Assembly: GCA_964475165.1 (NCBI GenBank)
Contig: CAYYVN010000001.1
Span: 31,518-95,517 of the forward strand
Direction: 5' to 3'
DNA length: 64,000 bases
Origin: an uncultured Verrucomicrobiota bacterium
Lineage (GTDB): Bacteria; Verrucomicrobiota; Kiritimatiellia; JAAZAB01
The first letter of the stretch is position 1; each line of letters opens with the position of its first letter. Shown here piece by piece: positions 18,001 through 24,000 of this stretch. The position numbers are program-made.

Positions 18001-21000
18001 GCCTGATATTCCCGTGGCTGGCTGAGGAAGAACGCGCCGGCGGCGGCCGTCACCAGCAAAGCGAAGAGCGCTATGAACCAGCGATGCCGCAGTATCATGC
18101 GCAGCATATCCCGCAGCGATAAAAAGTCATCCGCCGACTGCATGAGCGTCCCCGGCACGGCCGGCAATGGCGCGGGGGTGCGATCTGTGCTGGTGGACAT
18201 AGTCTTTTCTCCTCCGACTAGTTTGCCATTCGTGAAGATGCCGAGTTAAGGTTATGCCAAAAAACGCCGGGGAGCAAATGAAAAAAGCGTCGCCTGTGCC
18301 TGGCTTCAAGCCAAGCAGGCGCGCTTCTCAAGGGTGTGGGGCAGTTCCACCGGAGAGCGGGCTGTTGCCTGGGGCATGGCGTCCTGGGAGAGCTGCATCA
18401 TGGCTGCCGGACTAGGATTTGAACCTAGACGAGCAGATCCAGAGTCTGCCGTGCTACCATTACACCATCCGGCAAAAAAGCGCCGTCTTTCGGCATTGCT
18501 GGCGTTTAGACTGAACGTTCGGCTGGGGAAAGTCAAGCCTGGGATTGCGGGCCGGCGCTGCCGGCCGGGGGCGGCTGGTTTTTTGCTGAATCAACCAGCT
18601 GTATTTCCGGCGTGACATTTCCAGTGCAAAGGGCATAATAGCAGTTTCACCGGTATGTTGGCGTTTAGCCTGCGCCGGGTGTGGGAGGGACAAGCCTGTG
18701 GCTGTGAATATCGTTGCAATGTGCGATGACGCCGTCCGCGTCGAACGCGTGCTGGTGAGCGTCTCCGACAAAACCAATCTGGAAACCTTCATCCCCGGCT
18801 TGGTGGAGACCAATGCGCGGCTGGTGTTATATTCCACCGGGGGCACCTATCAGGTGCTCAAGGAAATCCTGGGCGAGGCCCGGGCGGCCCAACATCTGGT
18901 GCAGGTCTCGCAATATACGGGTCAGCCTGAGATGCAGGGGGGCTTGGTTAAGACCTTGGATTTCAAGATCTACCTGGGGCTGCTGAGCGAAACCTATAAT
19001 CCCGCTCATGCTCAGGATCTGGCGCGGCTCGAAGCCAGTAAATTGGATATGGTGGTGACCAATCTCTATCCCTTCAGCAAGACGGTGGCCGCGCCGACGG
19101 CTACTCCCGAGCAGGCCCGGGCCAATATTGATATCGGCGGGCCCTGCATGTTGCGGGCCGCCGCCAAGAATTTTCTGCGGGTAGCCGCTTTGAGCGATCC
19201 AGCTGATTATGCGCGTATCCTGGCGGAGCTCAAGCAGGGCGACGGCTCCCTGACTCTCAACACCCGCTTTGAGTTGGCTCAGAAAGCTTTTGCACATACC
19301 GCCGCTTATGATACGGCCATTGCCGCTTATCTGGCCGGCCGCACCACCAGCGCCGTGCGGCAGTGCTATAAAATCATGAATTGAGCGCGGCGCGGGCCCC
19401 GGGGGCCAGGGCCCTTGACCAGGTCGGCGCGGCCTGCTATAAATGGTTCATTGGATGCAAAGCAAGGGAGCAGAGATGAAAAGATATTTGATATTGTTCG
19501 CTGCCGGCATGGTCCTGGGGGGCTGGTTAACAGCCCATGCTTGGGCCCAAGACAACGAACCCGAGGCACGTTTCCGGGGTGGGTCCTACGATGGTTACGA
19601 TAGCTGCGACGTGGAAAATACGACCATCAGTTCCGGGCTGCCGGCCGGCACAGTTTTCATCATGATGTAAGGCCTGGCGCCTGCGCCGTGTTGCTTTCGG
19701 AAGCAATGGGGGCCGCTCCTGCCAGCCGCGCCCGGGCGGCGCGCTGTTTTCCCAGCCAGATAGAGGGTATGCGATGGCAGTCAGGGATTTTAAATCGACC
19801 TATAAAACCATGGTCGCCGATCATTTTCCGTTGCGCATGGAGATCAGCTTCGGAGAGGGATCCGCGCGCCAAACACTGGTCTACGAGAAAGCACGCTGGC
19901 TCATCGAGGGGCAGGATAAGGGCTTGCGTTACGGCGAAAACCCGGGTCAGCCGGCCGCGCTCTACAGGTTGATCAACGGCAACCTGCTGCTGGGTGAGGT
20001 GCAGAGCGTTCAGCCCGGGCGTTACCTGGCTTCGGATGTGGAGCTGCTGCAGTCGGGCAAGCATCCGGGCAAGACGAATATCACCGATATCGATAACGCC
20101 CTGAACATCCTGCGGCATCTCACGGCCACGCCTTGCGCCATTATCGTCAAACACAATAACCCCTGCGGCGTGGCCAAGGATGCCCAATTGGCGGCTGCCT
20201 ATGCCAAGGCCAATCAGGCCGATCGCGTCGCGGCTTTCGGCGGTGCTATCGCGCTCAACCGCGAGGTGGATCGCGAGACCGCCGCGTTGATTCTTGAGAA
20301 TTACGCCGAGGTGGTGGCCGCGCCCGCCTTTGGGTCTGGCGTGCTGGAGATGTTCGCCACCAAAAAAAACCTGCGCGTCATGCGCATTGCCAATATGGAC
20401 CGTCTGGAAAACTTTGCCTGTGAGCGGGTGGTGGATTTCAAATCCCTGGTAGATGGTGGCATCATAGCGCAATGGTCGTTCCTGCCCATGACCCGTACTC
20501 CCGAGCAGCTCCTGCCAGCCCAGGCCTTGCATAAGGGCCAGGAATATAGAATCCAACGCATGCCCACCGCCCAGGAATACGATGATCTGCTCTTCGGCTG
20601 GTTGATCGAAGGCGGTGTAACCAGCAACTCGGTGCTTTATGTGAAGGATGGCGTGACGATCAGCATCGGAGCCGGCGGTCAGGACAGAGTGGGTATGGCG
20701 CAATTCGCGCGCGATAAAGCCTATCGCAACCTGGCCGAACGACTCAGCTGGGAACAGTATCAGTGCCCCTACAGCAATCTTACGGAGGCTGCGCAACGCG
20801 CCGAAATTGACCAGGAAGTGGCGCGCCAGCGCGGCGGCTTGCCGGGCAGCTGCATGGTATCCGATGCCTTTTTCCCATTCCGCGACGGTGTGGATGTTGG
20901 GTTGCGTGAGGGCATTACGGCCGTAATCCAACCGGGGGGCTCCGAGCGGGATTACGAGAGCATCACCGCCTGCAATGAAGCTGGTGCGGCCATGGTCTTC

Positions 21001-24000
21001 ACTGGGCAGCGCTGTTTCAAGCACTGAGTTAGCCGGGCTCGCCGGCAGTCTTCAAGCTGGAGCGCTCCAGTCGTCGGAAGGCGCCGTGCAGCGCCAGACA
21101 GGCCGCCAGCATCCCCACCCCAATCACTCCCATGGCGCTGGTGGGCTGCCACAATAAGTTGATAATATTGGAGAGCGGACCGGCCAGCAGGATACCAGCG
21201 AAGACGACGAAATTGGCACTGGCCCAGACCTCTCCCTTGCGCTGCGGGTCAGCGCGCAGCTGCAGAAAGCTTTCCACGGGAATTAAAAACAGCCCGGCCC
21301 AGAAGCCAACCAGCGCCAGGGCGCTATAGAGGATCGGCAAGCTCCAGTTTGCCGGTAAATAAGGAATGCCCGCTATCAGCATCATGGTCAGGGCCATACC
21401 GCCGCCGGCCGGCAGCAGGAGGCGCTGCCAGCGGGTGGGCGTCACCAGCTTGGCGCTGGCAAAACCGCCGGCAGCGATACCAGCTAACTGGGTGACGATC
21501 AAGAGGCTGGTAGCGGTTTTGCTTAAGCTGAACTGATTGATGCCCAAGGGGTTAATGATCAGGATCTGCAGCGCGCCCATGAACCAGAGGAGGACATCGG
21601 CGCTCAGTCCGAGGCTGAGATATTTATCACGGGCGATCTGCCGCAGGCTCTGCCAGGTATGCCAGGGCCCAGACCAGGGGAAAGGCCGATTGGTCCGCAG
21701 CGGTGGATGGCGCTGCATGCCATAGCTGAAAGCCAAGCCCAGCAGGGCCAGGGCCAAGACGCTGAGTCCAACGCACCACCGCCCCCTGGCGACACCCCAG
21801 GCCAGGCCGGGACAATCCAGGGCCACGCCGGAAAGGGCCACGCCCAGCAGGATGGCGGTGGTGGAAGCGGTGCGCAGAATGGCGTTGGCGCGAATGATCT
21901 CGGCGGGCGGATATAATTCTGGAATGGAGCCATTCAAGGCTGGGCTGAAGAGCGTGGCCTGCAGGCCCATGACAGCCAACATACCAAAAATAAGCGGCCA
22001 GCTATCGAGCAGCATCCCGGCCGCGCCCAGCAGCATGGCCAGGAGCTCCAGCCACTTGCAAGCAATGATCACCTGCCGTTTGGCGAAGTGATCGGCCAGC
22101 CAGCCGGCCGGTGCGGCGGCCAGGATGAAGGGCAGTGTGAAAACAGCCAGGGCGTAGCCCTGCAGGGAGGTTTGCCCGGCGGCCACGGCCAGGATGAGGG
22201 CGGCTTGCTTATAGAAATTATCGTTGAACACCCCGCAGGAATAGGCGCCCGCCATGGCCGTGAAACTGCGGCGCGCGCGGCGGGCATTCTGATGGGGGCA
22301 AGTCGAGTTCATAAAAGATCAGCCTCCAGGCCTGCTGGGCCTAAGGGCATACCGGTTGCCGCCGATCATTCATCGGCGGCGCGTTTTTTTGGCCAGGCCG
22401 GCGAGCTGACCATCTCTCGCAAGCGTTGATCGATTTCGGCGGCAATGCGCATGAGGCCTGGTTGGGAGGGCGGATCGGCGGCCAGGCTGCCTTCCTGCAT
22501 GAAAAAATCGAAATGAATGCCATCCGGCGCAAAGTAAGCATCGCATTCCGGACCCGCGAGGATGGCGGCTAAATCCAATAGTTCGGCGCCGGTTTCCTGG
22601 GCGACTTTCCGGGTGATATCAATATATTGATCGTGAGTCCGGTTGCCTTCCTCTATCGAAACCACATAGCGCTTGCCGACCACCGCACTGGTCAAACTGC
22701 GGCGTGGCGCCGTGATCAGCAGGGGGATGGCACCGGTGGCGCGGATTTCCTTGATGAAAGCCTTCAGGACCGAACGGTATTCATCGGGCGGCACGCGCAG
22801 CACGCGTTCCTGTCCCTGGGAGCGGCGGGCCAAATGTTGTACGGGGCTGGCGGCCCAGATAAAGAACTTGAAAAAACGTTTTTGCCGCAAGACTTCAAAG
22901 ATACGCCCCGCCCAGGGACGCATTTCCAAGCCCATTTTCTGGCGGTCAGCTTCCTCGCTGAGCCAATGATCGTTCCAGCCGAAATAGAGCGTGACCACAT
23001 CGGGAGATAATTGACGGCCGAGCATTTGAAATTGCCGCAATCCCTGCAGGGCCGAATAGCCATGCACGCCGATATTAAAGGCTTCCCAGGGCTGGGGCGT
23101 GGGCGGAGCCTGGAGCAGGCCCTGATGGAGATAGTGAGAGTAGCCCGGGCGGCCCTGCCCGGTGACGGAATCGCCCATGCACAGCACGCGCACGGTGCCT
23201 GGCTGTTTATGAGGATCGACCTCGCGTTCCCGAAATCCGAGGCTATTGATGAGCCGGCCTTGAAAATAGGAGCCGGGGATCAGACGGAACATCAGGGCGG
23301 GATCAGGCGCGGTGCGCGGTATCTCCATCCCGCCCTCGGCATTTTGTCCCTGAAAGATGATCGGCGGCAATTCCGCTTCAAACCTGGCCCAGGCCAGCCC
23401 CAGTTCCAGCAGGGCCACCAGGAGGTAGGTTGAGCATAAAGCCAAGATGATTTTCTTGAAGACGGCGGTTTCCCACAGGCCGCGCCCAAGCGTTCCGCGG
23501 CGGGCGATTCCTTTTTTAAGCAGGCCCCGTGCGAGCAGGACCACCCCCGGTGCCAGCAGCGGTTTGAGTCCCCAATGAATGGTCAGGCGCAGCGGCCCCA
23601 GACTCAGACAGAAGGGGTTCCACAACCAGGCCGCGGCGAGGATCAATAAAGTCACCAGCAGCACCAGGTCCAGGAGAAGCAATGCTTTAGACCCCAGGGC
23701 GCCGGCCAGGCGCGGCGGCTGAACAGTTGGTGCATTCATCATAAAAACGCTCGCGCGCTGGCCGAGGGCCCCCAGCCTTTTAGAAGAGAGTATAGATAAA
23801 AGGCGCCGTGGTCTGGCCCAGAACAATCAAGAGCGCCATCAATAAGAGAATCAGGATCATGGGCACGATCCACCAGGCCTTGTTATGCCAGGCAAACCCC
23901 AGAAACTCCTGCAGCAGTCGTAACAGATATTTAACGAAGCGCATTTTTTTCTCCCAGCGGGCGACCCTCACTGGGCCCGCCAATCGACTTGCATTTAATC

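Follow-up and report, generated by a model that had tools for sequence, protein, structure and literature searches.

The question raised by this locus is why the two catalytic domains of PurH, found together in the bifunctional enzyme, are encoded by two separate open reading frames (ORFs) with a third ORF lying between them. The locus occupies positions 18698 to 21027 of a 64,000-nucleotide stretch (the window; positions 31,518 to 95,517 of contig CAYYVN010000001.1, GenBank assembly GCA_964475165.1) from an uncultured Verrucomicrobiota bacterium of the Kiritimatiellia, and a first-pass annotation had described it as a purH gene split at its interdomain linker by a 390-bp insert. On the basis of sequence comparisons, we favor, with a probability of roughly 85%, a different explanation: the locus appears to be an intact two-gene purH, encoding a free-standing inosine monophosphate (IMP) cyclohydrolase (IMPCH) and a free-standing 5-aminoimidazole-4-carboxamide ribonucleotide (AICAR) formyltransferase (AICARFT), whose separation is ancestral and between which an unrelated gene for a small secreted protein is located. 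An ORF scan confirmed the annotated positions, with three plus-strand ORFs, each in its own frame and each preceded by a purine-rich Shine-Dalgarno sequence, and with a gap of 389 nt between the 228-aa and 417-aa ORFs:

18698-19384 (+), purH2-type gene, predicted stand-alone IMP cyclohydrolase half, 228 aa; GTG start, GGGAGGG Shine-Dalgarno sequence upstream
19476-19670 (+), gene for a small, putatively secreted protein, 64 aa; ATG at 19476, AGGGAG Shine-Dalgarno sequence at 19465-19470
19774-21027 (+), purH1-type gene, predicted stand-alone AICAR formyltransferase half, 417 aa; GAGGG Shine-Dalgarno sequence upstream

An assembly error across 19385-19773 was ruled out, since contigs from eight or more independent samples or assemblies carry exactly the same proteins, at a DNA identity of 99.3 to 100% and with the same three-gene order on all such contigs that extend far enough. 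Two of the public records carrying the locus are an anaerobic-digester metagenome-assembled genome (MAG) and an anaerobic-digester metagenome, and the organism is of the Lentisphaerae/Kiritimatiellia type.

The 228-aa protein combines a Pfam MGS-like domain with the first 62 positions of PF01808 and covers positions 4 to 201 of the 510 in the NCBIfam purH profile, while the 417-aa protein contains the rest of PF01808 (E = 4e-57) and covers positions 184 to 510, such that the break does fall in the interdomain linker, as the annotation had proposed. With the MGS/IMPCH domain as its only domain, the 228-aa protein is a stand-alone PurH2; it aligns over residues 15 to 213 with PurH chains in the PDB (E = 3e-39) and carries all six IMPCH motifs (SVSDK, STGGT, VKTL, NLYPF, NIDIGG, and AAKN, at residues 21, 46, 84, 122, 143, and 155), which we take to be the motifs that hold Lys66, Tyr104, Asp125, and Lys137 of human ATIC. 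The 417-aa protein, with the AICARFT domain of PF01808 alone, is a stand-alone PurH1; it, too, aligns to solved PurH structures and contains the motifs RYGENP, KHNNPCG, SDAFFPF, and, at the C terminus, RCFKH (R-x-F-x-H), at residues 52, 126, 363, and 413, respectively. Both genes are intact and conserved and are under purifying selection: compared with L012, the closest relative and the one that also has the small gene, the IMPCH half is 74% identical, with proportions of nonsynonymous (pN) and synonymous (pS) differences of 0.17 and 0.65, and the AICARFT half is 80% identical (pN 0.12, pS 0.74). In NCBI records, the AICARFT-domain protein of the window and its 120 best homologues (P0001-P0120) are labeled "IMP cyclohydrolase," though the cyclohydrolase domain sits in the other gene.

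The AICARFT half is unusually long, exceeding the TIGR00355 profile by approximately 75 aa, of which some 61 aa are found in three insertions and the rest at the N terminus, before RYGENP. The annotation had noted an excess of about 60 aa between RYGENP and KHNNPCGVA; the total excess is real, but only about 14 aa fall in that interval when M. tuberculosis PurH is taken as the reference, the other insertions being located near residues 220-262 (about 14 aa) and at residues 317-354 (about 33 aa). The 417-aa protein has thousands of homologues. From 8000 candidates scored in a homologue search, the best 120, derived from MAGs labeled Lentisphaerae, Kiritimatiellota, Verrucomicrobiota, and Latescibacteria, measured 405 to 434 aa, nearly all of them 416 to 418 aa, at 70 to 81% identity. 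Given this near-invariant length, we consider the extra residues to be a trait of the subfamily.

What carries the argument, however, is the arrangement of purH in related genomes. A locus scan limited to one genome per GTDB species yielded 80 loci with an AICARFT identity of 63 to 80%, and the stand-alone AICARFT family proved to span Kiritimatiellia, Lentisphaeria, Desulfobacterota, and Spirochaetota, at 63 to 81% identity. No continuous, fused purH was present at any of the 80 loci. In 42 of them (L012 and 41 others, mostly from Desulfobacterota and Spirochaetota), the IMPCH half is a separate ORF directly upstream, with a spacer ranging from -14 nt (an overlap) to +397 nt and, in many cases, of only 1 to 14 nt, as would be expected of an operon; the small gene is found between the halves in none of the 41 other species. 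About 28 further loci, mostly from Kiritimatiellia and Lentisphaeria, show no IMPCH half in the stretch examined, which reaches 2.8 kb or more upstream. In view of the 41 species with separate halves and no small gene, and of these 28 or so loci without an IMPCH half, the small gene is considered to lie between genes that were already separate. Judging from this distribution, separate IMPCH and AICARFT genes would represent the ancestral, conserved state of a large clade, and the intervening DNA is not supported as the cause of the separation.

Separate PurH domains are not without precedent. Brown et al. (2011; PMC3261824) described isolated genes for PurH1 and for PurH2 as a common feature of archaea and stated that isolated PurH domains are frequent only there, and their paper cites work in which the two halves of avian PurH were each active when expressed separately. 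The genes in the window resemble these archaeal genes in that each domain is encoded alone and is presumably active, but the split form described here is bacterial, is widespread (in the Planctomycetes-Verrucomicrobia-Chlamydiae [PVC] group, Desulfobacterota, and Spirochaetota), and often has its halves adjacent in one operon. Compared with what the 2011 survey would suggest, the bacterial clade with a split purH is larger and more strongly conserved, and a search for a published account of a split AICAR transformylase/IMP cyclohydrolase in Desulfo- bacteria found none.

Against this background, the explanation offered in the annotation can be weighed, namely, that purH was originally fused and was recently disrupted by an insertion of 390 bp, which left a pseudogene or a crippled enzyme. 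The domains do lie in different frames, 389 nt apart and with an unrelated ORF between them, and a 13-nt near-repeat (12 of 13 positions) flanks the region at 19366-19378 and 19800-19812. The split, however, is older than the putative insert, as the 41 species with separate halves and no small gene indicate, and both halves have retained their motifs, a length typical of the family, and low pN relative to pS. As for a mobile element in particular, there was no GC anomaly, no terminal inverted repeat, and no transposase at the locus, and the 13-nt near-repeat is explained by the residues YK[IT]M, which it encodes and which are conserved in both proteins. We therefore regard a recent disruption as barely credible. 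The intact active-site motifs, the low pN/pS, and the precedent of separately active halves led us to reject pseudogenization altogether.

Two observations on the spacer region deserve mention here. First, the C terminus of the IMPCH half (SAVRQCYKIMN, 19340-19384) resembles the N terminus of the AICARFT half (MAVRDFKSTYKTMV, 19774-19820), both halves overlap on positions 184 to 201 of the purH profile, and endings of a like kind (C-Y-x-I-M and M-Y-[KR]-T-I-M) occur in some Desulfobacterota pairs; the resemblance may be a vestige of the linker, duplicated at fission, or may be due to chance. Second, the spacer between the purH halves of one Desulfobacterota locus (L071, 5703-5989) contains a 101-aa plus-strand ORF (MKMLKVV...QRNYYEHIIRDEKSY...), which we take to resemble a fragment of an IS200/REP-associated (Y1) transposase, so that the slot between the purH genes can take up unrelated DNA in other lineages as well.

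The stand-alone IMPCH halves also share a sequence feature of their own. All 42 of them (among loci L012-L091; in the window at 18947-18985, residues 84 to 96) match VKTLD[FYW][KR]IY[LM]G[LI]L, in contrast to the canonical VKTLHPxIHGG. This subfamily-specific change adjoins the catalytic Lys, and the presence of one variant motif in all 42 upstream halves argues for a coherent subfamily under selection.

The same feature is among the points that weigh against an intact two-gene purH with an unrelated secreted-protein gene between its halves. With TLDFKIYLG where canonical PurH has TLHPxIHGG, it is possible that the IMPCH half has an altered substrate or mechanism. Both halves also score below the NF002049 cut-off (205.4 and 268.6 bits versus 402), as they do for TIGR00355 (201.9 and 228.4 bits versus 528), which is as expected for divergent proteins of half length. 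A check for a fused purH, which covered the 64-kb window, found none. For the small protein, an AlphaFold model based on a 12-sequence alignment shows a confident helix at residues 2 to 26 only, the mature part having no confident predicted fold (predicted local distance difference test score of about 50 to 60). Finally, we infer the enzyme activities, export, transcription, and any binding function from sequence.

If the two purH genes do function as proposed, the 417-aa, PurH1-type protein would convert AICAR to its formyl derivative FAICAR in a folate-dependent reaction and the 228-aa, PurH2-type protein would convert FAICAR to IMP, such that the two polypeptides together would carry the de novo pathway through its final two steps, to IMP. 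The window shares both domain types and the signature motifs with bifunctional PurH/ATIC (TIGR00355, NF002049; PDB entries 1G8M, 1P4R, 3ZZM, and 4EHI), and the gene order, IMPCH followed by AICARFT, is the domain order of the fused protein. It differs in having two polypeptides, encoded by ORFs in different frames, rather than one, as well as in the longer AICARFT half, the TLDFKIYLG variant, and the scores under the cut-offs. A second known type, the stand-alone AICAR formyltransferase NF005492/PRK07106 (390 aa), is, like the 417-aa protein, bacterial, AICARFT-only, and of similar size, but the 417-aa protein scores 123.7 bits versus a cut-off of 415 and is therefore placed in another subfamily. 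ForH, a 216-aa stand-alone IMPCH-like protein, belongs to a secondary-metabolite pathway (formycin), unlike the locus in the window, where the purH1-type transformylase partner points to primary purine synthesis. The two IMPCH-type proteins are of the same length class and the same MGS/IMPCH fold, with ForH (PDB entry 6NKO) matching the 228-aa protein at E = 1.3e-26.

In kind, then, the purH part of the locus is known, consisting of stand-alone PurH1 and PurH2, while the small gene belongs to an undescribed family. Both halves fall short of all curated NCBIfam cut-offs, so that the subfamily lacks a model of its own and the curated models miss both purH halves. For purine metabolism, what changes is mainly the interpretation: as the split form is probably the normal functional state in this group, pipelines for annotation or for pathway completeness should count it neither as a pseudogene nor as a gap. 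It is conceivable, though rather unlikely, that this bacterial two-gene clade, marked by the TLDFKIYLG variant of its cyclohydrolase and by a longer transformylase, departs from canonical PurH in cofactor use or subunit assembly.

Which signals might drive expression of the three genes? A promoter-like sequence, GTGACA-16-CATAAT, was found upstream of the first purH gene, at 18612-18639, and the spacer contains two further candidate elements:

19415-19443 (+), sigma-70-like match TTGACC-N17-TATAAA (TTGACC at 19415-19420, TATAAA at 19438-19443; 10 of 12 matches), 33 nt upstream of the ATG of the small gene
19727-19753 (+), weak terminator-like hairpin (CGCGCCCGGGCGGCGCG, then CTGTTTTCCC; hairpin at 19727-19743), between the small gene and the AICARFT gene

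All three genes may be transcribed as one operon from the site at 18612; alternatively, the small gene, and perhaps the AICARFT gene too, might additionally be transcribed from the site at 19415. The latter had been annotated as a near-consensus promoter, and the sequence is indeed present, with 10 of 12 matches and a 17-nt spacing. Its -10 hexamer, however, lacks the conserved final T, because of which the site fails the rule of the promoter scanner (T at position 6) and is not listed by it, and the site is not conserved in L012. Matches with at most two mismatches number four in the 64-kb window, versus 1.6 expected by chance. The site at 19415 is a plausible candidate promoter. The hairpin at 19727-19743 could attenuate read-through into the AICARFT gene; it has no counterpart in L012, and the region shows no folding advantage over shuffled sequence (z = +1.84).

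Folding z-scores overall ranged from -0.75 to +1.84, indicating no excess of RNA structure in the spacer. An Rfam covariance search of 18200-21300 (E ≤ 1) returned a tRNA-Gln only, with no ZTP (pfl) riboswitch or other element, and an Rfam search in 11 related loci gave no match. On these grounds, known RNA elements in the spacer, riboswitches and leaders included, were rejected.

This leaves the question of what the ORF between the halves encodes. Its 64-codon length and the Shine-Dalgarno sequence in front of it were as annotated, and the protein can be divided into three parts:

19476-19547 (+), predicted Sec signal peptide, residues 1-24 (MKR, hydrophobic core, and AHAWA), by inspection
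19578-19601 (+), GGSYDGYD core motif, invariant in the closest homologues
19638-19667 (+), C-terminal tail LPAGTVFIMM, corresponding to a family consensus of P-x-G-T plus 4 to 5 hydrophobic residues, usually R/H/K-ended

The signal peptide pattern, consisting of a Lys/Arg-containing N terminus, a 17-residue hydrophobic core, and A-H-A-W-A, was apparent by inspection. The annotation had proposed AHA|WAQ cleavage with a mature part of about 40 aa, but AWA|QD is equally possible and would yield 40 aa.

Could the small ORF be a chance, nonfunctional ORF in a long, GC-rich spacer that carries regulatory signals? DNA of high GC content gives many spurious ORFs, and a 454-aa antisense ORF (19660-21024, minus strand), which spans the whole AICARFT gene and which we take to be a shadow ORF of GC-rich coding DNA, is one example; moreover, a word-indexed search with the small protein returned only two close homologues. 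The pattern of conservation points the other way. L012 has an orthologue of 63 aa in the same slot between the halves (5707-5898), and when the DNA of the two spacers is aligned, conservation is confined to the segment for the mature peptide, with differences that are largely synonymous (pN 0.24 and pS 0.75 for the mature part and 0.16 and 0.65 for the last 30 codons, similar to the values for the housekeeping neighbors). The other two frames of this stretch contain stops in one or both species. Two strain variants of the locus, at 99.3% DNA identity, differ within the ORF by synonymous changes only, and the ORF was called as a gene in all assemblies that carry the locus. Together with the 57 family representatives of the same architecture described below, and with the lack of any Rfam match or excess structure in the spacer, this makes a chance ORF highly improbable, and we conclude from the sequence evidence that the small ORF is a real gene, encoding a protein with a predicted signal peptide.

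Neither Pfam nor NCBIfam contains a model that matches the small protein, and no paralogue was found in the 64-kb window by tblastn or motif regex. An exhaustive HMMER profile search of 1.84 billion representative proteins, however, identified 57 representatives of what we refer to as the GGxYDGYD family at E ≤ 1e-3, with E values down to 5e-14 for nontrivial members. Approximately 35 of the 57 are 57 to 113 aa long and share one layout, consisting of a signal peptide (the N-terminal pattern is present in all small members), one or two [DE]RFxGGxYDGYD motifs, and, at the extreme C terminus, P-x-G-T followed by 4 to 5 hydrophobic residues and usually an R/H/K end. The protein in the window belongs to this family: it has all three parts and aligns over its full length with the single-motif members of 57 to 64 aa (P0127, P0139, P0144, P0146, and P0178), although its terminal residues are MM and it lacks the basic end. 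Across 12 members, G35, G36, G40, and Y41 are invariant. The same tail is found on larger proteins (P0132, P0149, and P0153, with lengths of 219, 508, and 727 aa), and the motif alone occurs in up to 11 copies in larger proteins, some of which have a type IX secretion system (T9SS) sorting domain. No Pfam or NCBIfam model covers the YDGYD motif in the window protein or in the family members, and a search for published work on the motif in a relevant context found none.

These relationships bear directly on the suggestion in the annotation that the product might be a bacteriocin or a secreted signaling peptide. The protein is small, has a Sec-type signal and one Cys in its mature part, and has a narrow set of close homologues, and a gene for a major facilitator superfamily (MFS) transporter adjoins the locus and is kept in L012. 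On the other hand, there is no double-glycine or other dedicated leader, no ABC transporter or peptidase among the neighboring genes listed (apart from the purH halves, these include the MFS transporter, a GDSL lipase, a carbamoyltransferase, and Wzz), and no Pfam or NCBIfam match; the Cys is not conserved across the wider family; and the partner of the family elsewhere is a protein of another kind (see below) and not an export or immunity system. The recurrence of the same motif and tail in surface or T9SS-cargo proteins of 200 to 2000 aa favors a structural or binding module over a toxin. We thus consider a bacteriocin or signal improbable, and the annotated picture of an independent AICARFT half next to an exported peptide holds broadly, without support for the bacteriocin or signal part. 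In our reading, the Sec system would export the small protein, cleavage would follow AHA or AWA, and the function would be unrelated to purines. Given the surface-protein setting of the Gly/Asp-rich motif, we speculate that it has a binding or structural role, possibly in metal binding.

A link to purine or folate metabolism might account for the small gene having been kept between the halves in two species, the order IMPCH, small gene, AICARFT being retained although the flanking proteins are only 74 to 80% identical. However, both species belong to a single lineage, so the shared order may reflect inheritance alone; it is hard to see how an exported peptide would reach cytosolic enzymes; and no pur gene was found near a family member in any of the contigs examined elsewhere, the informative ones (six of six) having a different neighbor altogether. 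Such a link therefore seems very doubtful.

That neighbor is a divergent secreted protein of approximately 485 to 550 aa resembling the formylglycine-generating enzyme (FGE)-sulfatase family (weak PF03781 match), encoded directly beside the motif protein and on the same strand in all six informative contigs (the P0153 contig, being too short to inform on its neighborhood, was left out):

L092, 25-1795: motif protein and FGE-like protein
L094, 4446-6246: motif protein and FGE-like protein
L097, 2037-4759: motif protein and FGE-like protein
L099, 401-2125: motif protein and FGE-like protein
L100, 148-4027: motif protein and FGE-like protein
L101, 217-1964: motif protein and FGE-like protein, the latter identified by a faint PF03781 match only

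The five partners that were compared (those of L092, L094, L097, L099, and L100) are 39 to 52% identical to one another, are unnamed in NCBIfam, and share an N-terminal region, 'NN[IM]xVTNV...FD[LV]SWxNSWR'. The module was seen in metagenome or MAG contigs, mostly without taxonomy, one of them with a T9SS-tagged neighbor. Unlike these family members, the copies in the window and in L012 have no adjacent FGE-like protein, and because tblastn found no FGE-like gene in the 64-kb window or at the L012 locus, the small gene in the purH slot is, at least locally, a solo member of its family. Tentatively, and as a rather unlikely idea, it may be a lone representative of a two-gene module not described so far, whose FGE-like partner would modify, bind, or sort proteins bearing the motif, the PxGT tail, or both. 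The PxGT-hydrophobic tail would then serve as a previously unrecognized sorting or recognition signal, and the motif as a modification or metal-binding site that is likewise new. If anything about this locus is to open up new biology, it is this tight pairing, which lies outside the window.

As for the immediate surroundings, the purH genes form a small plus-strand island amid minus-strand envelope and polysaccharide genes (14908-18200 and 21029-25830), which encode, among others, a dTDP-sugar isomerase, a Wzz-like chain-length protein, the MFS transporter, a GDSL-like lipase, DUF5989, and a carbamoyltransferase; of these, the MFS gene alone is common to L012, where it is convergent and downstream. 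The tRNA-Gln (CTG) returned by the Rfam search is located just upstream of the purH genes, on the minus strand (18401-18474), and L012 has no tRNA at the matching position. Between this tRNA and the first purH gene lies a strong terminator-like hairpin with a T-run (18557-18590, plus strand), though no plus-strand gene is located upstream of it.

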